Shown: positions 19,408 through 38,950, counted from the stretch's first letter. The stretch is 64,000 bases of DNA from Candidatus Versatilivorator sp. (GCA_965198125.1 CBDAOQ010000003.1:2447953-2511952); one strand, 5' to 3'. Made by a program: numbers and translations. Notes: generated from the sequence alone by a model not told the origin.

Positions 19408-21468
19408 ATGTCCGTCCGAATCGGAGTCGACGTCGGGGGTACCTTTACCGACATCGTCTGCTTTGACGAGCACGGGGAGGACTTCAGGCTTCTGAAGGTC
19501 CCCAGCACCCCCGATCAGCCCAGCACGGCCGTCATCGAGGGGACCCGCCGGGTCTTGAGCCAATTCGGGATTCCCGCCGAGTCGGTGCGGTTCTTCATTC
19601 ATGGGACCACCGTGGCCACCAACACCATTCTGGAGCGCAAGGGAGCCGAGGTGGCCCTGCTGGTCACCGCCGGATTCCGGGACGTTCCCTACATCATGCG
19701 GCAGGACCGCCCCCGACTCTACGACTACTTCCAGCAGCGTCCCCAGCCCTTGATCCCCCGGGAGCGCCGCTTTGAAGTCCCGGAACGCATGCTGTACACG
19801 GGTCAGGTCAGCCTGCCGCTGCAGGAGGAGCCCACCCGCCAACTGCTGCGCCGGCTGAAGGAGCTGGAAGTCCGCGACATTGCCGTATGCCTGTTGCATT
19901 CCTACGTGAACCCCTCCCATGAGCGGTCGCTTCGGGACTGGATCGGTCAGGAGATCCCGGAGGCCCGGGTCTCCCTTTCTTCGGATATCCTGCCCGAGTT
20001 CAAGGAGTTCGAGAGATTGAGCACCACGGCCGTCAACGCCTACGTGCTGCCCTCGGTGGGCAGCTATCTCCGGCGACTGGAAGAGGGTCTGGCCTCTCTG
20101 AAAATTCCCTCGGGGCTCCATATCATGCAGTCCAACGGAGGCATCATGACCTCCGAGACCGCCCAGAGCCACTGTGTGCACATGGTGCTGTCGGGACCCG
20201 CCGCCGGAGCCCTGAGCGGACTGGTCCTGGGGCGGAAGGCGGGGCTGGACCACATCATTTCCATCGACGTGGGTGGCACCAGCGCCGACGTGGCCGTGGC
20301 CCGTGACGGCACCCTCCACTTTGCCGAAGAAAGCGAGATCGCCGGGCAGATCCTCAAGATCCCGGCCATTGATATCAATACGGTCGGCGCCGGCGGCGGC
20401 AGCATCGCCTGGGTCGATTCCGGGGGAGCCCTGCAGGTCGGTCCCCAGAGCGCCGGCGCCCATCCCGGACCCGCCTGCTACCGGCGGGGAGGCAGCCGGC
20501 CCACCGTTACCGATGCCAACGTGGTCCTGGGTCGATTGAATGCCTGCTACCTCCTGGGGGGCGAGATGGCCATCGATGGGGAGCTCTCCGCAAAAGCCAT
20601 CGGGGAGGGCGTTGCCACTCCCCTGGGTCTGGAGGTGGTGGAGGCGGCCGAAGGGATCATTCGGGTGATCAACGCCGTCATGGCCAAGGCCATTCGGAGG
20701 CTCTCGGTGGAGAAGGGCTACGACCCCAGGGAGTTCACCCTGGTCAGCTTTGGGGGCGGGGGGCCCCTGCATGCGGCCGAGCTGGCAGCCGATCTGCAGA
20801 TACCCCGGGTCCTGGTGCCGCCGGTCCCAGGAGTCAGTTCCGCCCTGGGTCTGATCACCGCCGACTTTCGCCACGACTATGTGCGCACCGTGCTGTGGAA
20901 GCAGCGGCAGGCCTCCCTGGGCCAATTCAAGGCCCTGTTGGGAGAAATGCAATCGGCGGCCCTGGCCCAGTTGCAAAAGGAAGGTGTCGCCTCGGACCTG
21001 GTGGCCTTTGTCACCGCCTCCGACCTCCGCTATGAAGGGCAGGGATTCTCCCTTCCCGCCTCGTTCGACCTGGAGGAACTCTCCGGTTGGACCGACCTGG
21101 GTCCCCTGATCCGACGATTCCACCAGCGGCACCAGGAAACCTACGGATACCACGACGATCGGGCCGCCATCGAAGTGGTCAACCTGCGGCTGGCAGCCAT
21201 CGGACGACTCTCGCCGGCAAACCTGAGCCGACTCCCCCGGAGGCAACCCGATCCGGGTCCGGCCCTGGCAGGACCCAGGAAGATCTACGTGGACGGCCGA
21301 TTCACCACCGCCAACGTCTACCGGCGCTCCGGACTGGGGTGGGGCTCGGTGGTGCGGGGGCCGGCCATCGTGGAGCAACTGGACTCGACCACCCTCATCC
21401 TGCCGGGCCAGCAGGCCGAAACCGATGAATTCGGCAATTTGATGATCACCTGGGAGAACCTCCAATGA
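19408..21468 (+). CDS. hyuA: Hydantoinase/oxoprolinase family subunit A (HyuA-type)
   Basis: MSVRIGVDVGGTFTDIV N-terminus of the hydantoinase A family; 687 aa; the track ORF begins 24 codons earlier at a non-conserved Met. Confidence 0.85.
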   Translation: MSVRIGVDVGGTFTDIVCFDEHGEDFRLLKVPSTPDQPSTAVIEGTRRVLSQFGIPAESVRFFIHGTTVATNTILERKGAEVALLVTAGFRDVPYIMRQDRPRLYDYFQQRPQPLIPRERRFEVPERMLYTGQVSLPLQEEPTRQLLRRLKELEVRDIAVCLLHSYVNPSHERSLRDWIGQEIPEARVSLSSDILPEFKEFERLSTTAVNAYVLPSVGSYLRRLEEGLASLKIPSGLHIMQSNGGIMTSETAQSHCVHMVLSGPAAGALSGLVLGRKAGLDHIISIDVGGTSADVAVARDGTLHFAEESEIAGQILKIPAIDINTVGAGGGSIAWVDSGGALQVGPQSAGAHPGPACYRRGGSRPTVTDANVVLGRLNACYLLGGEMAIDGELSAKAIGEGVATPLGLEVVEAAEGIIRVINAVMAKAIRRLSVEKGYDPREFTLVSFGGGGPLHAAELAADLQIPRVLVPPVPGVSSALGLITADFRHDYVRTVLWKQRQASLGQFKALLGEMQSAALAQLQKEGVASDLVAFVTASDLRYEGQGFSLPASFDLEELSGWTDLGPLIRRFHQRHQETYGYHDDRAAIEVVNLRLAAIGRLSPANLSRLPRRQPDPGPALAGPRKIYVDGRFTTANVYRRSGLGWGSVVRGPAIVEQLDSTTLILPGQQAETDEFGNLMITWENLQ

Positions 21469-23222
21469 GCGGCGCAAACCCGAGTTCCCAAGTCAAGACC
21501 GACCCCGTCACTCTGCAGGTCATGACCAATGCCATTTATTCGGTGGCCGATGAAATGGTGGCGGCTCTGATCCGGACCTCCTTCTCCACCAATATCAAGG
21601 ACCGCAGGGACTGCAGCGGCGCCGTCTTCACCCGGGACGGCCAACTGGTGGCCCAGGGCGAGGTGGGCACGCCGCTCCATCTGGGGGTGATGCTGCCGGC
21701 GGTTCAGACCGCCATTGCCGCCGTGCCCCCCGAGACCCTGGAGCCTGAGGACGACATCATCATCAACACTCCCTACCCCGAAGGCCCCGGCCACCTCAAC
21801 GATGTCACTCTGGTCTCGCCCGTCTTCGACGGCCCTCATCTGGTGGCCTACGTGGCCAACATGTCCCACCACGTGGATGTCGGCGGCTTCGCCCCCGGCA
21901 GCATGGCCTTCGGTGTCTGGGAGCACTTTCAGGAGGGTCTGCAGATCCCTCCCCTGAAGCTGGTCAAGCGGGGGCGCATCGACGAGGACCTGGTGAGACT
22001 CATCACCGCCAACCTGCGGACTCCGGTGGAGTTCCGGGGCGATCTGGCGGCCCAGATCGCAGCCAACAACGTGGGCGAAGAGCGGCTCCAGGGCCTCATG
22101 CGGAAGTACGGCCGTGAGGCGATGCTCCATTACATGAGCGAAATCATGGATTACTCGGAGCGGCGGCTTTCGGCAGCCATCCGGCAACTGCCCCGGGGAT
22201 CCTTTTCCTCGCAGGACTTCCTGGAAGGGGATGGACTCTCCACTGAAAAAATCGCCATTCGAGTGACGGTCACCGTTCAAGAGTCCGAGCTGGTGGCCGA
22301 CTTCCGGGAGAGCGATCCCCAGGCCCTGGGTCCCATCAACTGCCGTCCGCCCTCGGTGAAGGCCTGCGCCTACTATCTGGCCAAGGCGCTTCTGGATCCG
22401 GGCTTGCCCCCCAATTCAGGAGCCTTTCGCCCGATCCGGGTGCTGACCAAACCCGGCACGCTCATGGAGGTTCAATTTCCCGGAGCTCTCTGCAACGCCA
22501 ACATCGTGACCACCCAAAGAATCGTGGATGCCCTCATGGGAGCCTTTCTCCAGATCATTCCCGAGCGGGCCGCGGCCGCCTGCTCGGGGACCATGAACCT
22601 GCTGAACATCGGTGGCCGCAACCCCCGCAGCGGGGCCCTGTTCAATTACATCGAGACCTACGGCGGCGGCCAGGGAGCCCTGGTGGACCGTGACGGCACC
22701 TCGGCGGTGCAGATGCACATGACCAACACCCGCAACGCCCCGGTCGAGGTGATCGAATCGACCTATCCCTTCTTCATCCACGGCTACGGCCTGGTCCCCG
22801 ACAGCGCCGGGGCCGGTGAGTTCAGGGGAGGCTACGGCATGCGGCGGGAGTTTGAAATCGAAGCCGAGAGAGTGACGGTCACTCTCAGCTCGGATCGGTT
22901 CGAGCTGGCTCCCTGGGGAGTCTTCGGCGGCCTCAGCGCTTCCACCGGCGACTGCAAGGTGGTCCTGCCGGACGGGTCGGTGGAGCAGCTCCCTTCCAAG
23001 GTGACTCGGGTCCTGACCAAGGGGTCCCGATTGATCAGCACCACTCCGGGCGGCGGGGGATGGGGAAACCCCTGCCGGCGGCCTCCGGAAAAGGTCCGTC
23101 AGGACGTGGTTCAACAACTGGTGTCTCGGGAGTCGGCGCTGAAGAATTATGGAGTCGTGCTCAAGGAGGATCTGACCCTGGATCGGCAGGCCACCGCCCG
23201 GGAGAGGGACCGTCGTGGATGA
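21465..23222 (+). CDS. hyuB: Hydantoinase B/oxoprolinase family subunit (HyuB-type)
   Basis: DPVTLQVMTNAIYSVADEM...RDCSGAVF motifs of hydantoinase B; ATGA overlap with hyuA. Confidence 0.85.
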   Translation: MSGANPSSQVKTDPVTLQVMTNAIYSVADEMVAALIRTSFSTNIKDRRDCSGAVFTRDGQLVAQGEVGTPLHLGVMLPAVQTAIAAVPPETLEPEDDIIINTPYPEGPGHLNDVTLVSPVFDGPHLVAYVANMSHHVDVGGFAPGSMAFGVWEHFQEGLQIPPLKLVKRGRIDEDLVRLITANLRTPVEFRGDLAAQIAANNVGEERLQGLMRKYGREAMLHYMSEIMDYSERRLSAAIRQLPRGSFSSQDFLEGDGLSTEKIAIRVTVTVQESELVADFRESDPQALGPINCRPPSVKACAYYLAKALLDPGLPPNSGAFRPIRVLTKPGTLMEVQFPGALCNANIVTTQRIVDALMGAFLQIIPERAAAACSGTMNLLNIGGRNPRSGALFNYIETYGGGQGALVDRDGTSAVQMHMTNTRNAPVEVIESTYPFFIHGYGLVPDSAGAGEFRGGYGMRREFEIEAERVTVTLSSDRFELAPWGVFGGLSASTGDCKVVLPDGSVEQLPSKVTRVLTKGSRLISTTPGGGGWGNPCRRPPEKVRQDVVQQLVSRESALKNYGVVLKEDLTLDRQATARERDRRG

Positions 23223-23275
23223 GGGGACAACCGCGCCCGTCAAACAGCGCCGGCCCGGCCGGCCCGGGGGAGACC

Positions 23276-24043
23276 ATGAAAATCCTGGTTTTGAATCCTT
23301 TCGCAGGCGGCATGCAGGAGCTGGAGCGGTGCCGGCAGGTGGCGGGACCGGACACCGAAATCGTGTTCGAGGACATTTCCGATGTCTATCCCTTGAGCTA
23401 CGTCACCTACATCTACTATCGCCACCGCTGCGCCGACGCCGTGGCCGAGCGGGCCTGCCGGGCCCAGGAGGAAGGCTTCGACGCCCTGTTCATCTGTTGC
23501 TGCTACGATCCGGGCCTGTGGGAAGCCCGCGAGCTGGTGGACATCCCGGTGACGGCGGCCTTCGAGGCCGGATGCCACTACGCCAACGCCATCTCTCAGA
23601 GATACTCGGTCATTGCCACCGAATACAAGACGGTGCACTGCTACCGCGAGCTGGCTCAACTCTACGGGGCCGGCTCCAAGCTGGCCTCGGTGAGGCATAT
23701 CCACCTGTCGGCCAGGGAGTCCTATCCGGATCGCACCGATCCCAAGGAGGTGGTGGCGCGGACGCTGGAGGTGGCTCAGAAGTGCGTGGAGGAGGACGGG
23801 GCCGAAGCCATCCTCATGGGTTGCACCCTGCAGAGCTGCCCGCTGACGGTCACCGGCGTGGACGATTCACTGGGCGCCCCCATCATTGACCCCGTGCTGG
23901 TGGGCGTCAAATTCACCGAGTTCATGGTGGAGGCCAGGCGGGCGGGATTACCGGTATTGAGTCGTTTCGGTACCTGGCAGAAGCCGCCGCGGGACGAGGT
24001 GGAGATACTGCGGCAGGCAAGGGTGCGGGCCGGGAGCGGCTAA
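23276..24043 (+). CDS. Asp/Glu/hydantoin racemase superfamily protein (hydantoin racemase-like)
   Basis: MKILVLNPF...GFDALFICCCYDPGL...EAILMGCT pattern with two catalytic Cys regions, typical of PF01177; GGGGGA 6 nt upstream of the ATG. Confidence 0.7.
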   Translation: MKILVLNPFAGGMQELERCRQVAGPDTEIVFEDISDVYPLSYVTYIYYRHRCADAVAERACRAQEEGFDALFICCCYDPGLWEARELVDIPVTAAFEAGCHYANAISQRYSVIATEYKTVHCYRELAQLYGAGSKLASVRHIHLSARESYPDRTDPKEVVARTLEVAQKCVEEDGAEAILMGCTLQSCPLTVTGVDDSLGAPIIDPVLVGVKFTEFMVEARRAGLPVLSRFGTWQKPPRDEVEILRQARVRAGSG

Positions 24044-24084: not shown

Positions 24085-24119
24085 AAAAGAGTTATCCACG
24101 AAGGGCCACGAAGAAAGCC
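24085..24119. repeat. Copy of an intergenic repeat family with CCACGAAGGGCCAC core
   Basis: AAAAGAGTTATCCACGAAGGGCCACGAAGAAAGCC. Close copies at 36380-36420 and 36550-36590, and in inverse orientation at 61727-61850. Confidence 0.45.
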
Positions 24120-24964: not shown

Positions 24965-25254
24965 ATGGGACCATTGCGCTGGACATGGAACGAGAACAAG
25001 AACCGCATCAACCGGCGGAAGCATGGTCTCAGCTTCGAGACCGCTACGCTTGTGTTCGAGGACCCGTTGATGGCGCAACTGCCGGGTCCGGACGAAGACA
25101 GATGGCTGACTAAGCGATCGGTAATGTGGTAGTCATCGTGGCTCACACATTGCCACTACCGCAACCCGGAACAGACACCGTGGTGGGGCGTATCATCAGC
25201 GCCCGGAAAGCCACGGCGCATGAAAGGAGGGCCTATGAAGAAGGAGACTTCTAG
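24965..25254 (+). pseudogene. brnT: BrnT (DUF497) toxin gene with a frameshift near 25105-25115
   Basis: Frame 1: MGPLRWTWNENKNRINRRKHGLSFETATLVFEDPLMAQLPGPDEDRWLTKRSVMW*. Shifted frame continues IGNVVVIVAHTLPLPQPGTDTVVGRIISARKATAHERRAYEEGDF* (canonical BrnT C-terminus) and overlaps the brnA start. Confidence 0.55.
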
Positions 25255-25525
25255 AGAACTCACCAAGCAGCAGAAGGCGGAGATCGAAGCTCTTGCGGCC
25301 CTTCCCGACAAGAGAATCGATACGAGCGACATTCCTGAGATTCTGGATTGGTCCGGTGCCAGAGGAGGAACCCTGTATCGGCCGGTGAAACAACAGATTA
25401 CGCTAAGGCTGGATGCCGACGTGGTGGCGTGGTTCAAGACCAACGCCCCTGGTGGACGGGGGTACCAGACTGAAATCAACCGTGTGCTTCGCGAACACGC
25501 CAAAATGGCTTTGCACCGTACTTGA
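25220..25525 (+). CDS. brnA: BrnA antitoxin
   Basis: YRPVKQQITLRLDADVVAWFKTNAPGGRGYQTEINRVLREH matches the BrnA_antitoxin family. Confidence 0.7.
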   Translation: MKGGPMKKETSRELTKQQKAEIEALAALPDKRIDTSDIPEILDWSGARGGTLYRPVKQQITLRLDADVVAWFKTNAPGGRGYQTEINRVLREHAKMALHRT

Positions 25526-25535: not shown

Positions 25536-26882
25536 CTATCGCAGCCCGTTGCCCGGAATCCAGTCGGTTCCGGCTAGCGGAATCTTGGCCATGGCCGCCG
25601 CTTCCACCGTGAGTGCGACCAGGTCTTCCCGCTCCAGGTGGTGGACGTTGGACTTGCCGCAGGCCCTGGCCAGGGTGGTCAACTCCATGGTGAGGGTCTG
25701 CAGGTAGTTCTTCAGGCGGCGGGCCCCCCAATCCGGCTGCATTCGCTTTTCCAGCTCCGGGATCTGGGTGGTCACGCCCACCGGACACAGCCCCGTATGA
25801 CAGTGGTGGCAGTAGCCGGGCGCGGTGCCCAGCTTGCCGTACTCATCGCTGACGTCCACCGGCTCCCGGCCGTCGAAGTAAGAGCGGCTGTTGCAGCCCA
25901 GCGCCATCAGCACGGCCTGGCCCAGAGAGACGGCGTCCGCCCCCATGGCCAGAGCCTTGGCCACGTCGGCCCCGCTGCGAATCCCCCCGGAAACCACCAG
26001 TTGCACCTCTCCCAGGACATCCATTTCGTCCAGAGCCTCCACCGCCTGCCGCAATGCCGGCAGGGTGGGAATCCCCGCATGCTCGATAAACACCTGCTGG
26101 GTGGCTGCCGTCCCCCCCTGCATGCCGTCCACCACCACCACGTCGGCTCCGGCCTTGACCGCCAGCTTGACGTCGTCCCGCACCCGGGTGGCTCCCAGCT
26201 TGATGTAGATCGGGACCTGCCAATCGGTGATTTCCCGCAGCTCGTTGATCTTGATGGTCAGGTCGTCGGGCCCGGTCCAATCGGGATGGCGGCAGGCCGA
26301 GCGCTGATCGATGCCCTCGGGCAGGGTCCTCATTCGGGCCACCCGCGGGCTGACCTTGAGCCCCAGCAGCATGCCGCCCCCGCCGGGCTTGGCCCCCTGG
26401 CCGATCACGATCTCAATGGCGTCGGCCTGCCTCAGATCCTGGGGATTGAACCCGTAGCGAGAGGGCAGGCACTGGTAGACCAGCGTCTTGGATGAAGCTC
26501 GCTCCTCCGGGGTCATGCCCCCGTCGCCGGTGGTGGTGGAGGTGCCCACCTCGGAGGCTGCCCGGCCGATGGCTTCCTTGACGTTGGCCGAAAGCGAGCC
26601 GAAGCTCATGCCGGCGATGGTGATGGGGGTGTCCAGGGTGACGGGCTTGGCGGCCCGCCGGGTGCCGAGGACGGTCCGGGTGAGGCACTTCTCCCGGTAA
26701 CCTTCCAGGGGATAGCGGGAGGCCGAGGCCGTCAGGAACACGAGGTCGTCGAAATGGGGCACCTTTCTCTTGGCGCCTAACCCGCGGATATCGTAGAGGC
26801 CCTGCTCGGCCGCCCGTTGAATGTACCGCAGGACCTGCCGGTCGTAGAGAGAGCTCTCTTCCAGATCGAGGTGCTTGCTCAT
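25536..26882 (-). CDS. mgsC: Glutamate-synthase-like FMN-binding subunit (GltB central domain 2); N-methylglutamate synthase subunit C-like
   Basis: 448 aa; PF01645-type motifs (GMSFGSLS, VVVDGMQGGTAA, VSGGIRSGADVAKALAMGAD) plus a C-terminal Cys cluster CHHCHTGLCP; last gene of the cluster. Confidence 0.75.
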   Translation of the reverse strand: MSKHLDLEESSLYDRQVLRYIQRAAEQGLYDIRGLGAKRKVPHFDDLVFLTASASRYPLEGYREKCLTRTVLGTRRAAKPVTLDTPITIAGMSFGSLSANVKEAIGRAASEVGTSTTTGDGGMTPEERASSKTLVYQCLPSRYGFNPQDLRQADAIEIVIGQGAKPGGGGMLLGLKVSPRVARMRTLPEGIDQRSACRHPDWTGPDDLTIKINELREITDWQVPIYIKLGATRVRDDVKLAVKAGADVVVVDGMQGGTAATQQVFIEHAGIPTLPALRQAVEALDEMDVLGEVQLVVSGGIRSGADVAKALAMGADAVSLGQAVLMALGCNSRSYFDGREPVDVSDEYGKLGTAPGYCHHCHTGLCPVGVTTQIPELEKRMQPDWGARRLKNYLQTLTMELTTLARACGKSNVHHLEREDLVALTVEAAAMAKIPLAGTDWIPGNGLR

Positions 26883-26926
26883 GGCTTGGCGAACCCCGCC
26901 GGCCTCCGGGTCATCCCCTGTTTCGG

Positions 26927-27640
26927 TCAGTATTGTTGTTCGGCATCCACGTTCCAGTGATAGAGCGTCTTGGCGGAGGCCACCCGCTTGAATTCCCGGG
27001 GGGAACAGTCCAGGCCTGTTCGGCTCAGCAGTTGCCCGACCCTGCTGTAGTCGCTCTCGGCCATGGGCTCTTCCCGGGCATCGGCGCCCAGTGAGTGAAT
27101 CCTGCCCCGGACATAGATCACGGCTTCATAGAGGGAATCGCCCAGCCCGGCGCCGGCGTCTCCGCAAATGACCAGGTGACCGGCCTGGGCCATGAAGGCG
27201 GACATGTGGCCCACGTGGCCTCCCACCACGATGTCGCCGCCTTTCAGGGAGATGCCGCAGCGGGAGGAGGCGCTTCCCTCGATGAACAGCAGGCCCCCGT
27301 GGGCCGAGGCCCCGGCGCATTGGGAGGCGAATCCCTTGACCCGCACCTCTCCCGACATCATGTTTTCCCCGACGCTCCAGCCCACGTTTCCGTGGACCAC
27401 GATCCGGGCCTGCCGGTTCATGCCTCCCAGGAAATAGCCGGCGTGGCCCCGGACATCGACCTGAACCGGTGCATCCAGGCCCACGGCGATGTTGTGAAGC
27501 CCGTTGGGGTTGAGGATCTCGACCCTGGAGAGGGACTTGGCCCCGATTTCATGATGCAGGGTGTGGTTGAGCTGGCGGACCGACAGCTTCTCCAGGTCCA
27601 GAGACTCCAAGTCCAGAGATTCCAGGTCTAGAGGCTCCAC
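26927..27640 (-). CDS. mgsB: Glutamate-synthase-like GXGXG-domain subunit (GltB domain 3); N-methylglutamate synthase subunit B-like
   Basis: VVHGNVGWSVGENMMSGEVRVKGFASQCAGASAHGGLLFIEGSAS...GGDIVVGGHVG GXGXG repeats. GTG start with GGAGG 10 nt upstream, overlapping the mgsA stop; the track ORF extends further upstream through stop-free GC-rich sequence. Confidence 0.7.
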   Translation of the reverse strand: MEPLDLESLDLESLDLEKLSVRQLNHTLHHEIGAKSLSRVEILNPNGLHNIAVGLDAPVQVDVRGHAGYFLGGMNRQARIVVHGNVGWSVGENMMSGEVRVKGFASQCAGASAHGGLLFIEGSASSRCGISLKGGDIVVGGHVGHMSAFMAQAGHLVICGDAGAGLGDSLYEAVIYVRGRIHSLGADAREEPMAESDYSRVGQLLSRTGLDCSPREFKRVASAKTLYHWNVDAEQQY

Positions 27641-28524
27641 GAGTAGATTTCCTCCGGCACCGGCTCGAACAGCTCCGCCGACCGGATGCCCGGCAGGTGG
27701 GCCAGGGAGCGAAACTCGGAGCTCACGGCCACGTAGTCCTCCGTTTCGGCAACCACGGCCGGCTTGCAGGCAAAAGCGTCCCGGACCAGGACCAGCTTCT
27801 CGGCCGTGGCCATCAGGAGGGTGTAGAACCCGTCCAGCTCCACGAAGGCTGCGCCCAGGGCCTCCTCCAGGGTCTGTCCCTCTCTCATGCGCCACTCCAG
27901 AAAGCGGCAGGCGGCTTCGGTGTCGTTGTCGGTCTCGAACACGATGCCCCGTTTTTCCAGCCGCCGTTTCAGGCTCCAGGGATTGGAGAGGGACCCGTTG
28001 TGCACCAGGCAGAAGTCTTCGCCGGCGGTAAAGGGATGGGCGTGGGCGGGGGAGACCGCCGATTCGGTCGCCATCCTGGTGTGGCCGACGCAGTGGCTGG
28101 CCGCCAACCCGCCAAACCCGTAGCGCCGGGCGATCTCGGCGGGATGGCCCATATCCTTGTAGACCTCGATGGACCGGCCCGTCGAAAGCAGGTGCACGGC
28201 GGGGAACTCCCGGGACAGCCACTCCTCCAGGCTCTCGGGTGCGATCGAGGAAACCAGCCGTCCATGATTTTCGATCCAGCTCAGATTGCCCTCGCAAGCG
28301 GTGTCCCGCTCAAAGGCCTTCCCCATCTCCGGCCAGTCGAACCCGGGCTGGCCGCAGAACAGGCTGTAACGCCGCTGCCTGCCGTCCCCGAGGGGAGAGA
28401 AGACCGCCAGGCCTGCCGAGTCGGATCCCCGGTCCCCCATGCAAGTGACCATGGGGGTGACCCACTCCCCCAACTGGGCCCGCTTCGACTCAGGCTTGAT
28501 CAGCAAGCCGATGATTCCGCACAT
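27628..28524 (-). CDS. mgsA: Class-II glutamine amidotransferase subunit (GltB domain 1-like); N-methylglutamate synthase subunit A-like
   Basis: Starts MCGIIGLL (N-terminal nucleophile Cys) with GGAGGA upstream; HTRMATES, HNGSLSN motifs of class-II GATase. Confidence 0.75.
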   Translation of the reverse strand: MCGIIGLLIKPESKRAQLGEWVTPMVTCMGDRGSDSAGLAVFSPLGDGRQRRYSLFCGQPGFDWPEMGKAFERDTACEGNLSWIENHGRLVSSIAPESLEEWLSREFPAVHLLSTGRSIEVYKDMGHPAEIARRYGFGGLAASHCVGHTRMATESAVSPAHAHPFTAGEDFCLVHNGSLSNPWSLKRRLEKRGIVFETDNDTEAACRFLEWRMREGQTLEEALGAAFVELDGFYTLLMATAEKLVLVRDAFACKPAVVAETEDYVAVSSEFRSLAHLPGIRSAELFEPVPEEIYSWSL

Positions 28525-28594
28525 GCGGATCCTCCGGAAATCCGGCGGCCAGGGCGGCGAGGTTTCCGACACCCCTGGCCGGGCCGCGTCGGTG

Positions 28595-29928
28595 TCAATA
28601 AAACTCCAGATACCGCTGGACTTCCCAATCGGAGACGTGCCGCTGGTACTCGGTCCACTCCATCTCCTTGAGTTCGATGAACTCCCGCAGGAATGCTTCT
28701 CCCAGTTGCTCCGCAAACAGGGAGTCTTCCTGGAGGGCTCTCAAGGCTTCGATCAGGGTCTGGGGGAGTACTCCGATGTTCATCTCCCGCAGGGCTTCCG
28801 GGGTGTAACGGTAGTGGTTGATGTTGTGTGGCGGTCCGGGGTCCAGCTTGCGCTCGATGCCGTCCAGGCCGGCCGCGATCACGGCCGCCGTGGCCAGATA
28901 GGGGTTGCAACTGGAGTCGCACAGCCTCAACTCGAGCCGCCCGTAGGGGACCCGCACCATTGAGGTCCGGTTGTTGTCCCCATAGGAGATATAGGCCGGG
29001 GCCCAGGTGGCACCGGACAGCGAGCGGCCCACCACCAGCCGTTTGTAGGAGTTGACCGAGGGGGCCGCCAGGGCGGTCAGGGCCGGAGCGTGGGCCAGCA
29101 GCCCTCCCAGGAAGTGGTAGGCCAGTTCCGACAGCCCCAGTCGGTTCTTGTCGGAATCGTCCTGGAAGAGGTCATTGCCCTCGCGGTCCCAGATCGACAT
29201 GTGGATATGGCTGCCGGTCCCGGTGCGGTTGGACATGGGTTTGGGCATGAAGGAGCAGATCACCCCGAATTCACGGGCGATCTCTCCGGCGGCCATGCGG
29301 AACAGCACGTAGCGGTCCGCCGAGGTGATAGCCGGTGAGAAGGTGAAGTTGATCTCGAACTGCCCGTTGGCGTCCTCATGGTCTATCTGGTAGACGTCGA
29401 ATCCGATGGACTGCAGCGAACCCACCAGCTTTTCCAGGAAGGCCCGGCTGCGTGAGAGTCCCTTGTAGTCGTAACAGGGTTTCTCCAGGGTGTCGGTGTC
29501 GTCGGCGGGCCGGATGGAACCGTCCGGATTGCGGCTCAGCAGCATGAACTCGGGTTCCAGGCCGGTGTTCAGGATCCAGCCCCTTTGTTCCAGGCGCTTC
29601 ACCTGCTGCTGGAGAATGTGGCGGTGTCGAAAGGGTAGGGCTCTCCGTTCACCCGGCCGTTGCAGACGATACGGGCATATCCTGGCTGCCAGGGGACCAG
29701 CGTCAGGGTGTCCAGATCCCCCACGGCCATGAAGTCGGGATCATGTGGCTCTTGGCCCAGGCCCCACACGGCGAACCCGGCAAATCCGGCGCCGTCGGTC
29801 AGGATATCCTCAAAGTGGCTGACCGGGACCGACTTGGTCTTGGCCACGCCGTGGACGTCGACAAACTGGGCCAGCACGAACTTGACATCGTTTTCCTTCA
29901 AGAAGGTCTGGGCTTGGTTGAGGTTCAT
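28595..29928 (-). CDS. gmaS: Glutamine-synthetase-family enzyme (gamma-glutamylmethylamide synthetase-like) with an apparent -1 frameshift near 29615-29625
   Basis: N-terminal beta-grasp part ([27 protein letters not shown]...) ends ...[14 protein letters not shown]. The +2 frame reads ...[29 protein letters not shown]... into the catalytic domain ([12 protein letters not shown]). Continuity would need one extra C in the run gacacc(c)gccac. Confidence 0.65.
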
Positions 29929-29933
29929 GGACA

Positions 29934-30647
29934 CTATCCTTTCAGTGAACTCGCCGGAGAGAGACCGGGATAGAGGCAGCCCAGCCCCACCGCATCGCCG
30001 CCGTCTTCCCGGACGATGCCCAGCAGCGTTTCCCAAAGATACACACTATAGCTCGGGTCCAGCCAAATCCGAAGCGCGGCGATGCCGGACGCCTCCACCC
30101 GCAGCAGCCGGCAGGAGACTCCCGCCACCCGGCTCAGAACCACCTGTCCCGCCGATTCCCGAAAATGGTGGCCGCAGGTCTGGCTGAGAACCTCCCCGGT
30201 CCGAGGTCCGATCAGCAGAAACGAGGCCTCCTGCCGCTCCACCCGGTAGACCCCCGGGGGGTTGGCCGAGAGCCGGTCCTGGATGCGGGAGACCACTTGT
30301 CCTCGAAGCCCGTCTTCGAGGAACACTTCTTCCCGGTCGATACGGACCAGTATCCCATGGCCTTCAATGGGCCTGACCGCGTAAAGGGCCTCAGCCGTTT
30401 GCAGGCCGTTCTCCCGGAGCCAGGGCAGCACGCCCGCTCCCTTCAGGCCCAGGCGGGGCAGGCAGCTCAGGTCGGCCAGGGCGAGGTGTCCCTTGAGCCG
30501 GTCTTCCTGCTCCGGGCCGGCGAATCGGAGGACCGCGGCCATGCCCCGCACCTCGGTCCAGACGGGATGCATCGGTTCCATCAGGTCATGGACCGGACTT
30601 TGCCTCTGGAGGCTTGGGATCGAAGGATTCATGAGGCGAGCCCGCAT
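29934..30647 (-). CDS. mgdD: Sarcosine oxidase gamma-subunit family protein (N-methylglutamate dehydrogenase subunit D-like)
   Basis: 237 aa; [16 protein letters not shown] pattern of the SoxG family; directly follows the SoxA-like gene. Confidence 0.65.
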
Positions 30648-30884
30648 TTCTCACCGGGTCGCTGGTAGCATGGTGAAAAGCAGTTTATTTTCAGTACCTT
30701 GATTGGTGTCATTTAAAGGCCTCGTGGGTACAGACCGTGCTGGGCGCGCTCTGGCTTGTCCTTTTCCCCTCAGCACGCACATGCTCGCTCGACCGTAGTG
30801 ACCGCTACGCTCTTCGCTCGCGAGCACGCGCTGAGGGGAAAATTCCTACGCCATGATCACGCCCCCCGGTGAGAAATGCGGGCT
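30639..30884. repeat. About 245-bp nested palindromic element inside the mgdC-mgdD junction; outer 20-bp perfect inverted repeat AGCCCGCATTTCTCACCGGG
   Basis: Arm 30639-30658 contains the mgdD start codon; arm 30865-30884 (reverse complement) encodes the last codons of mgdC. Inner inverted repeat TTTTCCCCTCAGC(G/A)CG... at 30762-30841. A second copy of the inner about 170 bp lies at 38785-38950. Confidence 0.55.
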
Positions 30885-33793
30885 GGCGCCTGCTTCTGCC
30901 GCAGGTTCCCGGGATCGTAAAAGGGCAATTCCACCACCCGGGCCGCGAACAGCCAGCGGCCGCCGATTCGGATGCGGACGGCGGTGCCGGGTGCGGACAG
31001 TTCCGGGTGAACGTAGGCCAGGCCGATGACCTGCTTCAGGGTGGGGCTGAAAGCGGCGCTGGTGACCCGGCCGGCAATCTCTCCTCCATGGATCACCAGC
31101 TCGCATTCCCCGGGCACGGGCCCGCCATAGGCCTCCGGGAAAGCGAACCCCACCAAACGGCGTTTGAGGGGCCTGGCCCCCAGAATCGACAGGCTGCGCT
31201 GACCCAGAAAGAAGGGTTTGTCGGCCTTCACCGCCCACTCCAGTCCCGCCTCCCCGGGATAAGAAAGACCGTCGGAGTCCTGACCCATGATCAGGTGCCC
31301 CTTTTCCAGACGCAGCAGGCGTTGGGCCTCCACGCCGAAGGGACGAATGCCGCCGGCCCGCCCGGCCTCCAGCAGCCGGTCCCAGACCCCCACGGCGGCA
31401 TCGGCGGGAACGTGGATCTCGTAACCCCACTCGCCCACGAATCCGACTCGGAGGACGCGGGCCCGAGCGCCAGCCACCCGTCCCTGGCGAACTCCCAGGT
31501 AGGGGAAGGCCTCCGGATCCAGGTCGATGTCGGTCAGCGATTGCAAGATCTGCAGGGACCGGGGGCCGGCCAGATTCATGGCCCCGTACATGCCCGTCAG
31601 GTTGAGAACCATCACCTGCAGCGACCAGATCAGGGCCCAGCGGGTCATCTCCCGGGCCACGGCGTCGGAAGCCCCGCTGGTGGTGGTCACGTAGAAGCGG
31701 TCGGAGGCCAGGCGGGCCGCCACACCGTCATCCACCATCATTCCGCTCTCGTCGCACATCAGGACGTAGCGGCTTCTCCCTTCCCTCAACCTGGCAAACC
31801 GCCCCGTGTACATCCTTTCCATGAAGGCCACCGCGTCCCGGCCGCAGATTTCCAGCTTGCCCAGGGTGCCCACGTCGACCACGCCCACCCGGCGGCGAAC
31901 GGCCTCGGCTTCCGCCTGGATGGCTGCCCGCCGGCTGGCTCCCGGGACCGGGTAGTATTCCGGCCGCAGCCAGCTTCCCGCAACCATGAAACGCGCGCCC
32001 AGTTGCCGGTGGCGGGCGTGCAGGGGGGTTCGGCGCTGGGGGCTGAAGATGCGCCCGGCCAGATGACTCAAGGGCACCGGGCTGGTGAAGGGACGGGCCG
32101 TGGTCAGTCCGGTCGCCGCCAGCGATTTTCCTTTGAGCCGGGCCAGGATTCGAGCGCCATTGAGGTTGGAATGCTTGCCCTGGCTGGGTCCCATGCCCAG
32201 GGTCGAGTAGCGTTTCAGCAGCTCGGCGCTGTCGAATCCCTCCTGGACGCTGTTCCGGATGTCGTCCAGTTGAATGTCCTCGTCGAGGTCCACGAAATTC
32301 TTGCCCCGAGGGTGGGGGAAGACCGGGTAAGGGTGGCTGAAGGCAGGCCCCCGCCGTTGGGACGCTGCCGGTGTTTCGGGAGGGGCTTTTCCAAGGTGCG
32401 CCGCCGCCTGCCTGCCGGCGCGGCGACCGTCCTCGAGCTGGTCCCCCAGGGCATAGATACCGTTGACCCGTCCGGCGGCAAAGACTCCCGGCGGCAGCCG
32501 GTCCGGGACATACTGTTCCAGAGATTCCGCGTACCGCATGCAGGCTCCCGCCTGGCGGAGGATGCTGTCCGCGGGAGTCCATCCCACGCTCATGGCGATG
32601 CCGTCACAGGAGATGGGCTCGGACTGATCCGGCAGGGGATCTCCGCGTCCGTTCTGAGGGCAGAGCAGCGCCCCTCGGATGGCTCGCTTGCCGGGCGCCG
32701 GCAGGGCTTCATAGATGGCAGTGCCCGGACGTATGGGAATCCGGCGCCCCGCCACTTCCTCTTTCCAGGTTGACGTCTCCCCTTGCGGCCGCAGGTCGGA
32801 GACCAGCGCCACCTTCACCCCCGCCCGGTGGAGGTCGACTGCCGCCCGGTATCCGTCGGTGTTGGCCGTCACCACCACCGCTTGCCGGAAGGGCTTGACG
32901 GCATACTGGTGGATCAACCGCTGCGCCGCCGAGGCCAGCATGACTCCGGGGAGGTCGTTGTTGCGAAACACGGCCGGCTGGTCGTAACAGCCGGCGGCCA
33001 CCACCAGGCTGCGGGCCCGCAGCTTGGTCAGCCGCCGGGAATCGATCAGGGCCAGCCAGTGGTCCGCGTAGCAGCCGGCCGCCGTGGTTCCGGTGCGCAG
33101 TTCCAGGTTGGGCAGGGCGGCGGCCTTGCCCAGAAGCTGGTCCAACAGGGCCCTGGCTTCCGGCTCGCCCGGCAACTGGAACCCCAGGGTCCCGCCCGGC
33201 AGGCGATCCTCTTCCACCAGCAAGACCTTCAAACCCAGCTCGGCGGCGGCGACGGCCGCCGAGAGGCCGGCGGGGCCGGAGCCCACCACCAGCAGATCGC
33301 AGAAGTCATAGCGCTTGGGGGTCGGCTGCAGCGGCTCGTCCGGATGGACGTTGCCCAGCCCGGCGATCCGGCGCATGCAGCGCTCATAAAACGGAAACAG
33401 GGCGCGGGGACGATGGAAGGCCTTGTAGTAAAAGCCTACGGGAAGGAAGGCTGAGAAAAGCTCGGTGAAACGATAGAGGTCCGACTGCACGCCTCCCCAG
33501 GTGTTGACCGCTTTGACCTCCAGTCCCGGCTCGATAGGGGTGGTATCCATCCTGAGGTTGGTCGAGTCCCGATTTTCGGCCAGGGCATTGCAGTCCAGAC
33601 CGCACAGGCTGAAGATGCCGCGGGGACGATGGTACTTGAAGCTGCGTCCCAGCACCCGGATGCCCGAGGCCCACAGGGCCGTGCTGAGGGTGTCCCCCCG
33701 ATACCCTTGGTACTTTCGGCCTTCGAAGACGAAGCCAACCGGCTGCTCCCGATCGATCCGTTCTCCGGGCTGGGGGCCAAGGCGTTCACTCAT
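30857..33793 (-). CDS. mgdC: Sarcosine oxidase alpha-subunit family protein (N-methylglutamate dehydrogenase subunit C-like): 2Fe-2S-like N-domain, FAD/NAD domain, C-terminal GcvT-like folate-binding domain
   Basis: Start MSERLGPQPGERIDREQPVGFVFEGRKYQGYRGDTLSTALWASGIRVLGRSFKYHRPRG (SoxA N-terminus); LVVGSGPAG dinucleotide motif; C-terminal aminomethyltransferase-like region. Confidence 0.8.
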   Translation of the reverse strand: MSERLGPQPGERIDREQPVGFVFEGRKYQGYRGDTLSTALWASGIRVLGRSFKYHRPRGIFSLCGLDCNALAENRDSTNLRMDTTPIEPGLEVKAVNTWGGVQSDLYRFTELFSAFLPVGFYYKAFHRPRALFPFYERCMRRIAGLGNVHPDEPLQPTPKRYDFCDLLVVGSGPAGLSAAVAAAELGLKVLLVEEDRLPGGTLGFQLPGEPEARALLDQLLGKAAALPNLELRTGTTAAGCYADHWLALIDSRRLTKLRARSLVVAAGCYDQPAVFRNNDLPGVMLASAAQRLIHQYAVKPFRQAVVVTANTDGYRAAVDLHRAGVKVALVSDLRPQGETSTWKEEVAGRRIPIRPGTAIYEALPAPGKRAIRGALLCPQNGRGDPLPDQSEPISCDGIAMSVGWTPADSILRQAGACMRYAESLEQYVPDRLPPGVFAAGRVNGIYALGDQLEDGRRAGRQAAAHLGKAPPETPAASQRRGPAFSHPYPVFPHPRGKNFVDLDEDIQLDDIRNSVQEGFDSAELLKRYSTLGMGPSQGKHSNLNGARILARLKGKSLAATGLTTARPFTSPVPLSHLAGRIFSPQRRTPLHARHRQLGARFMVAGSWLRPEYYPVPGASRRAAIQAEAEAVRRRVGVVDVGTLGKLEICGRDAVAFMERMYTGRFARLREGRSRYVLMCDESGMMVDDGVAARLASDRFYVTTTSGASDAVAREMTRWALIWSLQVMVLNLTGMYGAMNLAGPRSLQILQSLTDIDLDPEAFPYLGVRQGRVAGARARVLRVGFVGEWGYEIHVPADAAVGVWDRLLEAGRAGGIRPFGVEAQRLLRLEKGHLIMGQDSDGLSYPGEAGLEWAVKADKPFFLGQRSLSILGARPLKRRLVGFAFPEAYGGPVPGECELVIHGGEIAGRVTSAAFSPTLKQVIGLAYVHPELSAPGTAVRIRIGGRWLFAARVVELPFYDPGNLRQKQAPARISHRGA

Positions 33794-34052
33794 GGTCGTG
33801 GTCTTCCCCATACAGATAGGTCCGCAGGATCTCGTCGGTAGAGGTGTTCCGTTCGGCGATGAACCAGACGCCGCTGGCCAGGTGGCACCACCACTCCTTT
33901 TTGACCGCGGCGGCCCCGGAGCGATGAAAGACATAGTCGGCCCACTGCCGGTCGGAACACTCTCCGGGTGGGGGCATCGGCCGGAAAGTGCCGCCGTAGG
34001 AAAATTCCTGGATGGGCCGCCAGCCGTTGACGGGACAACGCATCAGCTTCAT
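33786..34052 (-). CDS. mgdB: Sarcosine oxidase delta-subunit family protein (N-methylglutamate dehydrogenase subunit B-like)
   Basis: MKLMRCPVNGWRPIQEFSYGG... SoxD-type small subunit; GGAGGA 9 nt upstream; 8-nt overlap with the mgdC start. Confidence 0.65.
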   Translation of the reverse strand: MKLMRCPVNGWRPIQEFSYGGTFRPMPPPGECSDRQWADYVFHRSGAAAVKKEWWCHLASGVWFIAERNTSTDEILRTYLYGEDHDHE

Positions 34053-34083
34053 CTGCCGCAATCCTCCGGTCCCGGCGATCCTT

Positions 34084-35325
34084 TCAGTGTCCGACCGAGG
34101 CGGCTCCCTTTTCACCCACCAGTTCGAACTCCTCGAATCGGGAGAGGCGAAAGGGGACGATCAGGGGATGGGGCCGGTCGGTGGCCAGGGTGTGGGCCAT
34201 GGTCTTGCCGCACACCGGGGTCGCCTTGAATCCCCAGGTACCCCAGCCGGCATCCAGGTAGAATCCTTCCACCGGCGTTTTCCCCATGATGGGAGAAAAA
34301 TCGGGCGTCATGTCGGCCAGGCCGGCCCACTGGCGCAGCACCCGCACCTGGCCCAGGAAGGGAAACAGCTCCAGCATGTGTCCGGCCAGGCCCTCCACGA
34401 AATCCAGGGTCGAGCGGGTGGAGTGCAACTCGTAGGGGTCCAGCGCTGCCCCCATGACCAGCTCGCCTCGCGAGGACTGGCTGACGTAGAGATGCAGGTT
34501 GGCCGAAACGATGATGGTGTCCAGCCAGGGCTTCAGGGGCTCGGTGACGCAGGCCTGCAGGGGATGCACCTCCAGGGGCGTCCGAATGCCCACCATCCGC
34601 ATTACCGCCGGCGTGTATCCGGCCACCGCCGACAGGACCTTGCCGGTCCGGACAAAGCCCCGGTTGGTTTCCACCCCCGCCACCCGGCCACCCTGGACAC
34701 GGATCCCGGTGACCTCGGTCTGCTGGTGGATCTCGACGCCGCGCTGGCTGGCGGCGCGGCCATACCCCCAGGCCACCGCGTCGTGACGGGCGATGGCTCC
34801 GGGAGGGTGGTAGAGGGCCCCCAGCACCGGGGTGTGCCCCCCGCAGCTCAGGTCCAGGTGAGGGCATTCCCGGCGGATCACCTCCGGGCCCACCAGCTCG
34901 CTGTCCACCCCCAGGTGCTTGTTGACCTCGGCCCGCCAGCGCATGGTCCGCAGGGTGGCGTCGCTGTGGGCCAGGGTGAAATGCCCCCGGCGGGAGTAGA
35001 ACAGGTTCAGGTCCAGGTCGGCCGACAGGTCCTGAAACAGGCGCAGGCTCTCATCGTAAAAGCGGACGCCCTCGGCCGTCAGGTAGTTGGAACGAATGAT
35101 GGCGGTGTTGCGTCCGGTCCCGCCGGCGCCCAGGTAGCTCCTCTCCAGGACGGCCACCTCCCGGATCCCATGGTCGCGGGCGAGATAGTAGGCGGCCGCC
35201 AGGCCATGGCCTCCGGCCCCGATAATGACGGCGTCGTAGTGGGGCTTCAGCCGGTCGGGGCAACGGAACATGCGGGGTTCCGGATAGCGCCGGCTCATTC
35301 CGAATCGTAGCAATCGAAAAGGCAT
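34084..35325 (-). CDS. mgdA: Sarcosine oxidase beta-subunit family FAD oxidoreductase (N-methylglutamate dehydrogenase subunit A-like)
   Basis: YDAVIIGAGGHGLAAAYYLA FAD-binding motif, DAAO-type fold; start MPFRLLRF at 35325 (the track ORF starts 16 codons earlier). Confidence 0.8.
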   Translation of the reverse strand: MPFRLLRFGMSRRYPEPRMFRCPDRLKPHYDAVIIGAGGHGLAAAYYLARDHGIREVAVLERSYLGAGGTGRNTAIIRSNYLTAEGVRFYDESLRLFQDLSADLDLNLFYSRRGHFTLAHSDATLRTMRWRAEVNKHLGVDSELVGPEVIRRECPHLDLSCGGHTPVLGALYHPPGAIARHDAVAWGYGRAASQRGVEIHQQTEVTGIRVQGGRVAGVETNRGFVRTGKVLSAVAGYTPAVMRMVGIRTPLEVHPLQACVTEPLKPWLDTIIVSANLHLYVSQSSRGELVMGAALDPYELHSTRSTLDFVEGLAGHMLELFPFLGQVRVLRQWAGLADMTPDFSPIMGKTPVEGFYLDAGWGTWGFKATPVCGKTMAHTLATDRPHPLIVPFRLSRFEEFELVGEKGAASVGH

Positions 35326-36004
35326 GAAGGTTTCCGGGGTGCGATCCTTCGGGACGGGGGCACCACTAACCACTAGCCACTATTCACTTTTCACCTAGCC
35401 GCGCTGCCTTGCCATGCGATGGGGCTGATCATACAGGGAGAAACAGGGGTGTTTCAGGTAAGCCGGGCCCCCGCCCCCACGACGGTGCGCATCACTCAGA
35501 GGAAAAACAGCCGTTCGTCAATGAAGACGAACCACCAATGAACACGAATAGGCACCAGGACTGATGGACCTCCTTCAACGACAACTGGCGCCAAAATGCT
35601 TCTGCACTTTTGTCCCGTTGGTGTGACCCTGTCATGGGAGGAAGCCCCCCCGGGAGCGCGGGCGTCCCGCCCGCACAAATCCTCCCGCAGCTTCGGCCAT
35701 CTCCTCCACCGGAATCAACCGGCAGCGGCGCCCTGCCTCTGCTTCGGCCGGGCCCATGCGGTTCCCGCCGGCAGGGCGGTCGGCTGCAACATCGCAGGGA
35801 AACTGAGCGGCAACCGAAGGGACAGCATGCGGGCGGGACGCCCGCGCTCCCGGGGGTGTCGTCCCGATGGTGAGGTGGGGGGTATCCGGCGGGCGACTTC
35901 TCTGAAAGCCGGCCTGTCCCCTTTGGGAGACTCCCGTTTGCCTGCGAGCCGGGCGCCCGCCCCCCGCGACTGGGCAGATCCATCGAGAAGGACTATAAAT
36001 TGAA

Positions 36005-36164
36005 CATCGATGCACAGGATGCACAGGATGCACAGGATAATCAGGACGGGAGGCTGCTGCAGGAGACGCTGACTCAAGCAATGATCGCGTGCGGATTTGA
36101 GGATGTCCGGGAATACAAGCCAGCCGTCTCCGGAAAAAATCCTGTGCATCCTGTGCATCGATGT
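36005..36164. repeat. Long inverted repeat with GCACAGGAT tandem copies: 25-bp perfect arms separated by about 100 bp
   Basis: ACATCGATGCACAGGATGCACAGGATGCACAGGAT (36005-36038) vs ATCCTGTGCATCCTGTGCATCGATGT (36139-36164), about 680 bp upstream of mgdA. Confidence 0.5.
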
Positions 36165-36249
36165 GAATCAAAAATCTACCCATGCCTGACTATGAACCGG
36201 TTTCCAGCCAGGCCAGGCGGTTGCAGGCAAGTGGGGCCCCTTGTTTCAG

Positions 36250-36590
36250 TTGTTTCAGACAAGTCCGGCCCCCGCCCTGCCGTGCGGATCATACGAGAGT
36301 GAAACAATCGGAAATCGACAATCCTTTCGTGACCTTGGCATCCCGTCGCGGCTAACCTCAACGCCTTAGTGGCCCTTTGTCGTTCTTAGTGGCCCTTCGT
36401 GGATAGCTCTTTTTTCTTTTGTTTCAGGTAAGTCGGGCCCCCGCCCTGCTGGGCGGATCATACGAGAGTGAAACAATCGGAAATCGACAATCCTGTCGTG
36501 ACCTTGGTATCCCGTAGCGGTTAAACTCAACGCCTTAGTGGCCCTTTGTCGTTCTTAGTGGCCCTTCGTGGATAACTCTTTTTTCTTTTG
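36250..36590. repeat. Tandem direct repeat, 2 x about 170 bp, immediately 3' of the sulfite-oxidase-like gene
   Basis: Unit TGTTTCAG(A/G)(C/T)AAGTC(C/G)GGCCCCCGCCCTGC..GGCGGATCATACGAGAGTGAAACAATCGG...CCTTAGTGGCCCTTTGTCGTTCTTAGTGGCCCTTCGTGGATA(G/A)CTCTTTTTTCTTT. A partial extra 5' copy at 35452-35480 and partial 3' copy at 36590-36604. Confidence 0.6.
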
Positions 36591-36607
36591 TTTCAGGTAA
36601 GCTCAAC

Positions 36608-38746: not shown

Positions 38747-38784
38747 ACCATCCCTCCCTGGGGCTGAAGCCCACGCTAGTTTAA

Positions 38785-38950
38785 CCCGCATTTCTCACCG
38801 GGGGGGCGTGAAAATGGCGCAGGATATTTTCCTTCAGCGCGTGCTCGCGACCGAAAAGCGTAGCGGGCACTACGTGCGAGGGAGCATGGGCGCGCTGAAG
38901 GGAAAAAGACAAGCCAGGGTGCGCCCGGCGCAGTCCGTACTCCGAAGCCT
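38785..38950. repeat. Second copy (about 170 bp) of the palindromic element found inside the mgdC-mgdD junction, here intergenic
   Basis: CCCGCATTTCTCACCGGGGGGGCGTGAAAATGGCGCAGGATATTTTCCTTCAGCGCGTGCTCGCGA...GCGCTGAAGGGAAAAAGACAAGCCAGGGTGCGCCC aligns with the reverse complement of 30720-30884. Stem positions differ by paired changes (CCCCTCAGC/GCTGAGGGG vs CCTTCAGC/GCTGAAGGG). Confidence 0.5.

Follow-up and report, generated by a model that had tools for sequence, protein, structure and literature searches.

A probable N-methylglutamate pathway operon with a frameshifted gmaS gene in an uncultured Acidobacteriota bacterium

The DNA stretch analyzed here, referred to as the window, comprises 64,000 nucleotides of a Candidatus Versatilivorator sp. 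assembly (GCA_965198125.1 CBDAOQ010000003.1:2447953-2511952) and carries on its minus strand eight co-oriented, contiguous genes that fill positions 25536-35325. Calling of open reading frames (ORFs) together with Pfam and NCBIfam profile searches placed them, 5' to 3' on that strand, in the order mgdA-mgdB-mgdC-mgdD-gmaS-mgsA-mgsB-mgsC (Table 1). The region is very probably an operon of the N-methylglutamate (NMG) pathway in an uncultured bacterium of the Acidobacteriota, a reading built on homology and gene arrangement. The NMG pathway has been described as the combination of gmaS, mgsABC and mgdABCD (PMC6237917) and is widespread in non-methylotrophs (PMC5023228). Its three steps are the formation of gamma-glutamylmethylamide by GmaS, the conversion to N-methylglutamate by MgsABC and the release of glutamate and a one-carbon (C1) unit by MgdABCD (PMC6237917; PMC5023228).

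Table 1. Features of the gene cluster and of its immediate surroundings (window coordinates).
Feature	Position	Strand	Evidence or remark
mgdA, SoxB-like (beta) FAD subunit of putative N-methylglutamate dehydrogenase, 413 aa	34084-35325	-	PF01266 DAO, 2.6e-65; TIGR01373 489.6 bits
mgdB, SoxD-like delta subunit, 88 aa	33786-34052	-	PF04267 SoxD, 3.1e-26; TIGR01374 61 bits
mgdC, SoxA-like alpha subunit, 984 aa	30857-33811	-	Fer2_4, FAD/Pyr_redox, SO_alpha_A3, GCV_T (1.9e-72), GCV_T_C; TIGR01372 808.9 bits
mgdD, SoxG-like gamma subunit, about 198-237 aa	29934-30542, ORF reaching 30647, start codon uncertain	-	weak GCV_T match, 31.8 bits
gmaS 5' fragment, beta-grasp domain	29599-29928	-	PF03951 Gln-synt_N; TIGR03105 positions 2-97
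gmaS frameshift site, CC instead of CCC	29623-29624	-	comparison with 27 relatives
gmaS 3' part, other frame, catalytic domain	28595-29622; listed ORF from GTG 29602	-	PF00120 Gln-synt_C, 2.3e-99; TIGR03105 507.7 bits
mgsA, class-II (Ntn, N-terminal nucleophile) glutamine-amidotransferase-like subunit, 298 aa	27628-28524	-	GATase_6, GATase_7; start MCGIIG
mgsB, GXGXG-domain subunit, 237 aa	26927-27640	-	PF01493 GXGXG, 8.6e-13
mgsC, FMN-binding glutamate-synthase-domain subunit, 448 aa	25536-26882	-	PF01645 Glu_synthase, 2.5e-96; GltB positions 863-1106
Hydantoinase A/B pair, then Asp/Glu/hydantoin-racemase-family gene	19336-24043	+	best NCBIfam match caprolactamase alpha/beta, below cut-off
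Repeat-rich non-coding spacer, 1.25 kb, upstream of mgdA	35357-36602		lineage-specific insertion

The Pfam and NCBIfam matches bore out the order given in a preliminary description of this DNA, namely genes for sarcosine-oxidase (sox) beta-, delta-, alpha- and gamma-like subunits followed by glutamine synthetase (GS)-like, class-II amidotransferase, GXGXG and FMN-domain genes on the minus strand. The cluster had also been called complete, which holds for its gene content, all eight genes being present, contiguous and on the minus strand, and fails for gmaS, which is interrupted. The boundaries adopted agree with gene calls on close public contigs (413, 88, 984, 198-205, 444, 297-298, 208-239 and 448 aa), and the 13-nt overlap of mgsB with the end of mgsA is also found in relatives. 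A protein identical to the 413-aa MgdA is called on 20 public contigs and one identical to MgsC on 7; these contigs represent other strains, with DNA identity of at most 98-99%. Exact-sequence look-ups with MgdC and with either gmaS fragment gave no match.

The GS-like gene yields a 444-aa ORF when one C is inserted at the break, and this repaired protein aligns without gaps across the site with characterized gamma-glutamylmethylamide synthetase (GMAS), PYPFDTRHILQQQ against PYEFDTRVVLKQQ. It matches the GMAS of Methylovorus mays No. 9 (MmGMAS, PDB 9QUR) with 694 bits and 65% identity over 443 aligned columns, the GmaS of Rhodovulum sp. 12E13 (RhGmaS, PDB 7CQL) with 355 bits and 42% identity, and all glutamine synthetase chains in PDB with 264 bits or less. 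The M. mays enzyme is the GMAS of a methylotroph and forms gamma-glutamyl amides from methylamine and ethylamine (PMC12588301). Among the curated families, TIGR03105 ('type III glutamate--ammonia ligase') is matched by the C-terminal fragment alone with 507.7 bits, over the cut-off of 469.6, and TIGR00653 (GlnA) by the C-terminal and N-terminal fragments with 284.9 and 45.4 bits, both under the cut-off of 429.15.

The residues that distinguish GmaS from GS point the same way. In RhGmaS the ammonium-binding and -deprotonating Asp50' of GS is replaced by Ala48' and the glutamate of the Glu-flap by Trp300, catalysis involves Asp177, Glu186 and Arg312, and Tyr147, Gln175, Asp177, Glu179, Glu186, Asn188 and Lys30' have been proposed to form the methylamine pocket (PMC7948447). 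Mapping of these residues onto the repaired protein through an HMMER alignment placed Ala50 and Trp309 at the two replaced positions, and showed that the catalytic residues (Asp183, Glu192, Arg321) and the proposed pocket residues (Tyr153, Gln181, Glu185, Asn194, Lys32) are retained; two RhGmaS contacts to the adenine of ATP, Trp189 and Tyr191, correspond to Phe, both conservative changes. The window protein thus shares with the M. mays and Rhodovulum enzymes a full-length gap-free alignment and the two domain families of the GS fold besides these signature residues, and it differs from them in that its frame is broken after residue 102 and that it belongs to an uncultured member of the Acidobacteriota instead of a methylotrophic proteobacterium. 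These data support the assignment of the gene to the GmaS type (EC 6.3.4.12), not GlnA, with a predicted ligase activity. Grouping with GlnA had been named beforehand as the result that would speak against the NMG pathway, and the scores (694 bits to GMAS, at most 264 to any GS) run opposite to it. The contrast drawn at the same time between GmaS and GlnT does not stand: the Rhodovulum GmaS structure was deposited under the name 'type III glutamate--ammonia ligase' and PGAP labels plasmid-borne homologs 'glnT', therefore 'GlnT' and 'GmaS' are two names for one family, and type III GS (TIGR03105) and GmaS are the same.

The genes preceding gmaS encode four sox-like subunits (beta, delta, alpha and gamma), and are linked to gmaS and mgsABC. 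With the sarcosine oxidase TSOX of Corynebacterium sp. (1VRQ/3AD7) and Stenotrophomonas maltophilia (2GAG) they have in common the beta/delta/alpha/gamma layout and the domains, including the folate-binding aminomethyltransferase domain (GCV_T) that forms the C-terminal part of the alpha subunit. MgdA (beta) matches the TSOX beta chain 1VRQ_B with 387 bits and 45% identity, and MgdC (alpha) matches the alpha chains 1VRQ_A/2GAG_A with 374 bits, its first ~190 residues being unaligned. The differences from TSOX include this level of beta identity, the unaligned alpha N-terminus and scores that miss the curated NCBIfam cut-offs for soxA (TIGR01372, 808.9 against 1164 bits), soxB (TIGR01373, 489.6 against 529.45) and soxD (TIGR01374, 61 against 116.5). 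In addition, genes of this cluster type are always linked to gmaS and mgsABC and not to glycine-betaine or sarcosine genes. The orthologs that adjoin gmaS and mgsABC in genomes of other phyla are closer (66-84% identity for beta, 45-66% for alpha, a range of 54-81% also being recorded for the sox-like proteins against such orthologs), and the cluster-linked Mgd orthologs of Azoarcus and Parazoarcus are 54-73% identical. These scores favor the NMG reading over a grouping of the sox-like genes with characterized sarcosine oxidase, the second outcome that had been named as contrary. MgdABCD is supported as a putative N-methylglutamate dehydrogenase by this comparison with cluster-linked orthologs.

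The three adjacent ORFs at the end of the cluster separate the domains of the glutamate synthase large subunit (GATase_6/7, GXGXG and Glu_synthase), and mgsA opens with Met-Cys, which provides the N-terminal Cys nucleophile of Ntn amidotransferases, as read directly in the sequence. The chemistry is analogous to that of the GS/glutamate synthase couple (GlnA and GltB, or glnT-glxBCD in rhizobial naming), in which an ATP-dependent gamma-amidation of glutamate is followed by amido transfer through amidotransferase, GXGXG and FMN modules; here, by contrast, the GltB modules are three separate proteins and the GS-like enzyme lacks the ammonium-binding residues. Within mgsB, a 15-bp tandem repeat of 3.3 copies (27590-27639) encodes LDLES repeats at the N-terminus of the protein and its copy number varies by strain.

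Automatic annotation would describe the same genes as a heterotetrameric sarcosine oxidase, which the hydantoinase-type genes might supply with substrate via creatinine or N-methylhydantoin, together with GlnT and a GlxBCD-type glutamate synthase for ammonium assimilation. This description is highly improbable, even if the sox-like subunits and TSOX are clear homologs (374-387 bits) and a hydantoinase A/B pair with a hydantoin-racemase-family gene lies 1.5 kb downstream and is conserved in Acidobacteriota relatives. The GS-like protein has neither Asp50' nor the Glu-flap glutamate and is far closer to characterized GMAS than to any GS, the label 'type III glutamate--ammonia ligase' is carried by the Rhodovulum GmaS structure itself, and the soxA, soxB and soxD scores fall under the curated cut-offs. 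The hydantoinase genes are convergent to the cluster, with toxin-antitoxin genes between, and their best match is a caprolactamase, below cut-off; they adjoin the cluster in 13 of 80 homologous loci (see below), that is, in 11 of 16 loci of the Acidobacteriota type (L001-L016) and in two labeled delta proteobacterium (L033, L044). On these same grounds the supply of sarcosine from creatinine or N-methylhydantoin by the hydantoinase genes was rejected.

The conservation of the cluster was surveyed by a scan with the repaired GmaS protein in which each GTDB species was represented by a single genome, and 80 loci were kept. The order soxB-soxD-soxA-soxG-GS-GAT-GXGXG-FMN on one strand is identical in 25 of them; a further 10 have the same order with a delta or gamma subunit too divergent for tblastn, 11 contain all components in permuted order, and the remaining loci are mostly truncated contigs. 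Chance cannot account for the gene content, given that dozens of genomes repeat this order. The loci span Acidobacteriota, Verrucomicrobiota, Planctomycetota, Lentisphaerota, Cyanobacteria and Proteobacteria, cultured carriers being Azoarcus sp. L1K30 and Parazoarcus communis. The clusters of Methylobacterium extorquens DM4 (mgsABC-gmaS / mgdABCD) have the same eight gene families and three enzymes, their two halves being divergently transcribed where all eight genes of the window are co-oriented; the co-linear order mgdABCD-gmaS-mgsABC is common to the window and to the Rhodocyclales relatives Azoarcus and Parazoarcus. NMG pathway clusters are also known from Methylocella silvestris BL2 and Methyloversatilis universalis FAM5. 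Genes enriched next to the homologous clusters encode an XRE/cupin regulator (24 loci, of proteobacterial type, none such adjoining the window cluster) and an Amt-family transporter (7 loci), and on a Cupriavidus metallidurans plasmid the gmaS-mgsABC homologs adjoin dimethylamine monooxygenase genes. All three kinds of neighbor fit a role in methylated-amine catabolism.

Gene content and order, domain architecture, the signature residues of GmaS, the closest characterized homologs and the conservation of the cluster form the basis of the NMG pathway assignment, and with GmaS identity, sub-cut-off sox scores and recurrent synteny they uphold the pathway proposed in the preliminary description; the substrate, the flux and the use for carbon or nitrogen would be those suggested by homology. 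GmaS would join methylamine to the gamma-carboxyl of glutamate at the expense of ATP, giving gamma-glutamylmethylamide. MgsABC, as a split glutamate synthase large subunit, would then move the methylamino group to C2 to produce N-methylglutamate, and MgdABCD would oxidatively demethylate the latter to glutamate. Handing on the C1 unit, as 5,10-methylene-tetrahydrofolate (5,10-methylene-H4F) or as formaldehyde, is the probable task of the folate-binding GCV_T domain in MgdC. On balance, methylamine nitrogen would enter the glutamate pool and the methyl carbon would enter C1 metabolism. In M. extorquens DM4, GMAS is dispensable for the use of methylamine as nitrogen source and essential for its use as carbon source (PMC6237917).

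Several observations weigh against this assignment. The gamma subunit MgdD is recognized weakly (GCV_T, 31.8 bits) and had no NCBIfam match in the profile search, although its position and length fit the gamma-position gene of relatives (198-205 aa) and it is 33-90% identical to the gene at the same position in other clusters. No intact gmaS ORF, and thus no uninterrupted frame across its two domains, is present in the window. Genes for methylamine transport, H4F-linked C1 oxidation, C1 assimilation or the serine cycle were not found within the 64 kb, so that the use of methylamine as a carbon or nitrogen source, put forward in the preliminary description, is a prediction. Finally, GMAS enzymes also accept other small amines.

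This promiscuity raises the alternative that the same enzymology acts on another physiological amine, for instance ethylamine or a different small primary amine of the habitat. RhGmaS accepts ethylamine, propylamine and hydroxylamine, its lowest Km being for methylamine (PMC7948447), and MmGMAS has been described as promiscuous up to bulky amines (PMC12588301). In the window protein the proposed methylamine-pocket residues are all conserved, a methyl group would suit the one-carbon (folate/GCV_T) domain of the dehydrogenase, and homologous clusters adjoin dimethylamine monooxygenase genes, all of which make a different physiological amine unlikely. Methylamine is most likely the substrate of this cluster, as judged by these conserved features. 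It is a breakdown product of trimethylamine N-oxide (TMAO), choline, betaine and carnitine.

The frameshift reported earlier in the GS-like gene was confirmed as the loss of one C relative to 27 relatives, in all of which the gmaS frame is intact. At the break the window has GACACCG where all the relatives compared have GACACCCG; its coding (minus) strand reads TTCGACACCGCC, with CC at 29624-29623, and TTCGACACCCGCC was found at the site in 13 GTDB species-representative genomes, 7 ENA contigs and 7 further distinct ENA contigs. The 5' fragment comprises 102 native residues followed by 7 out-of-frame residues and TGA, and the break lies where the beta-grasp domain passes into the catalytic domain. 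Indels were also compared between the window and eight contigs of 95-99% identity (same or near species), covering 16 genes besides gmaS, of which seven belong to the cluster and nine flank it; gmaS alone has a net frame-breaking indel among the genes compared, and brnT, which is also broken, lies outside this set.

An error of consensus or assembly and a recent strain-specific mutation are about equally probable as the source of this deletion. If the frameshift were genuine, gmaS would be a strain-specific pseudogene in a decaying cluster, non-functional or partly functional, while the population otherwise keeps the gene. The clean surrounding sequence, with no other net frame-breaking indel in the 16 genes, speaks for a mutation, as do the insertion sequence (IS) elements and the truncated IS copy present in the window and the loss of 4 nt from the nearby brnT, a loss atypical of read errors and suggestive of real gene decay in this genome. 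Pointing to an error are the singleton nature of the deletion (the 27 relatives without it represent eight or more samples), its location in a short homopolymer, the commonest type of long-read consensus error, the occurrence of such errors in this assembly family, as seen in a 2x-coverage contig of a relative, and the absence of decay in the other seven cluster genes. Recurrent decay of gmaS in the lineage was considered and rejected: the homolog concerned (P0082, 93% identical, with two gmaS frameshifts) reflects read errors, since its contig has 2x coverage and its soxA, hydantoinase B and Mo-oxidoreductase genes are also split. Programmed frameshifting was likewise rejected, as every relative has the protein in a single frame.

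At 29602-29599 (GTGA) the stop codon TGA of the 5' fragment shares bases with a GTG in frame with the 3' part, as in translationally coupled genes, probably by coincidence. It is very unlikely that the deletion is genuine and that GmaS is made as two polypeptides by termination-reinitiation at this GTGA, that is, as a naturally split enzyme that still assembles, or that the strain relies on a direct, GmaS-independent MgsABC route. The Methylobacterium mgsABC genes alone gave N-methylglutamate at a level 2.5-fold below that obtained with gmaS (PMC6237917), therefore a genuine frameshift would weaken and not necessarily abolish the pathway: without the ATP-dependent first step, the strain would have at best the less efficient direct route. 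If the deletion is instead an assembly error, the strain would have the same intact pathway as every relative sampled.

The pathway, its enzymes and its spread beyond methylotrophs are already well established, and the gain here is at the level of annotation, not of mechanism. The full-text literature searches returned no paper tying the NMG pathway to this lineage, to Acidobacteria or to sponge symbionts of this phylum. The cluster would add an NMG methylamine pathway to an uncultured, Candidatus Versatilivorator-like lineage of the Acidobacteriota and suggests that this lineage can scavenge methylamine for nitrogen and possibly for energy. It also carries a lesson in naming, as the automatic labels 'type III glutamine synthetase', 'sarcosine oxidase' and 'glxC' conceal the pathway.

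Unlike the NMG clusters of methylotrophs, that of the window carries between mgdC and mgdD an element resembling a miniature inverted-repeat transposable element (MITE), which fills the spacer at 30636-30887. It consists of a 23-nt inverted repeat (GCCCGCATTTCTCACCGGG, 96% complementary; arms 30636-30658 and 30865-30887) around 206 nt that include an inner 16-nt hairpin (30762-30842), and a solo copy lies at 38784-38801. Of the two arms, the outer one overlaps mgdC at its 3' end, and the inner one includes the ATG that lies furthest upstream in the mgdD ORF. The motif is confined to the closest strains (L003, L011, L081-L086). At the mgsA/mgsB junction four of these strains (L082, L083, L085 and L011) have an insert of ~125-140 bp with the terminal inverted repeat of the same element, and identity to several strains drops at this junction from ~99% to ~96%, which suggests recombination.

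The spacer upstream of mgdA is missing in the relative L001, where a molybdoenzyme gene abuts mgdA. Its repeats include a tandem one of 169 bp (36250-36601), others of 9 bp, and two perfect inverted ones, with arms of 29 nt (35647-35675 / 35828-35856) and 26 nt (36004-36029 / 36139-36164). The sole sigma-70-like match upstream of the cluster, a weak consensus match at 35457-35428, also lies within this spacer. Terminator-like matches did not exceed shuffled expectation in a terminator scan, and the 64-kb window gave no Rfam matches at gathering thresholds and no tRNAs. A short intergenic repeat similar to CCACGAAGGGCCACTAAGAACGACAAAGGGCCACTAAGG occurs at 36359-36420, 36528-36589, 61791-61850, 24085-24115 and 17112-17160 and resembles a dispersed element of the repetitive extragenic palindromic (REP) type.

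The window DNA is 95-97% identical to metagenome-assembled genomes (MAGs) labeled Candidatus Versatilivorator sp. and 'Acidimicrobiia bacterium' (L011, L003) and 98-99% identical to several long-read metagenome contigs, the closest relatives being Acidobacteriota MAGs labeled Candidatus Versatilivorator or Terriglobia. From the naming of these MAGs and from a giant fn3/cadherin-repeat protein, the host is presumably a sponge-associated Acidobacteriota lineage. The giant ORF (2639-14230, plus strand, 3863 aa) has fn3, cadherin, SWM_repeat, Ig-like and PPDK_N domains and internal tandem repeats of 306 and 342 bp, coincides with a strongly positive GC skew (up to 0.36) and resembles eukaryote-like repeat proteins of host-associated bacteria. 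Before it lies an ORF open at the window edge (9-2459, plus strand), which has a Ser/Thr protein kinase domain at its C-terminus and falls in a stretch of 74% G+C.

Upstream of the cluster lie genes for a sulfite-oxidase-like molybdoenzyme and for TPR, RraA-like, BNR and DegT proteins; downstream are BrnTA and HicB antitoxin genes, the hydantoinase/caprolactamase-like pair with the racemase gene, and an MFS transporter gene. Compared with L011, the brnT toxin gene (24965-25254, plus strand), which precedes the antitoxin gene brnA (25220-25525), has lost 4 nt after 25112 and is thereby split, with residues 1-49 and 62-97 in different frames; several related strains have no brnT. The region 43538-52487 is rich in mobile elements, including a DDE_Tnp_1 transposase gene (43538-45085), a DDE_3 transposase gene (45553-46662), a short phage-integrase-family ORF (48832-49479) and a second, shorter copy of the DDE_Tnp_1 transposase gene at 51324-52487 (387 against 515 aa).

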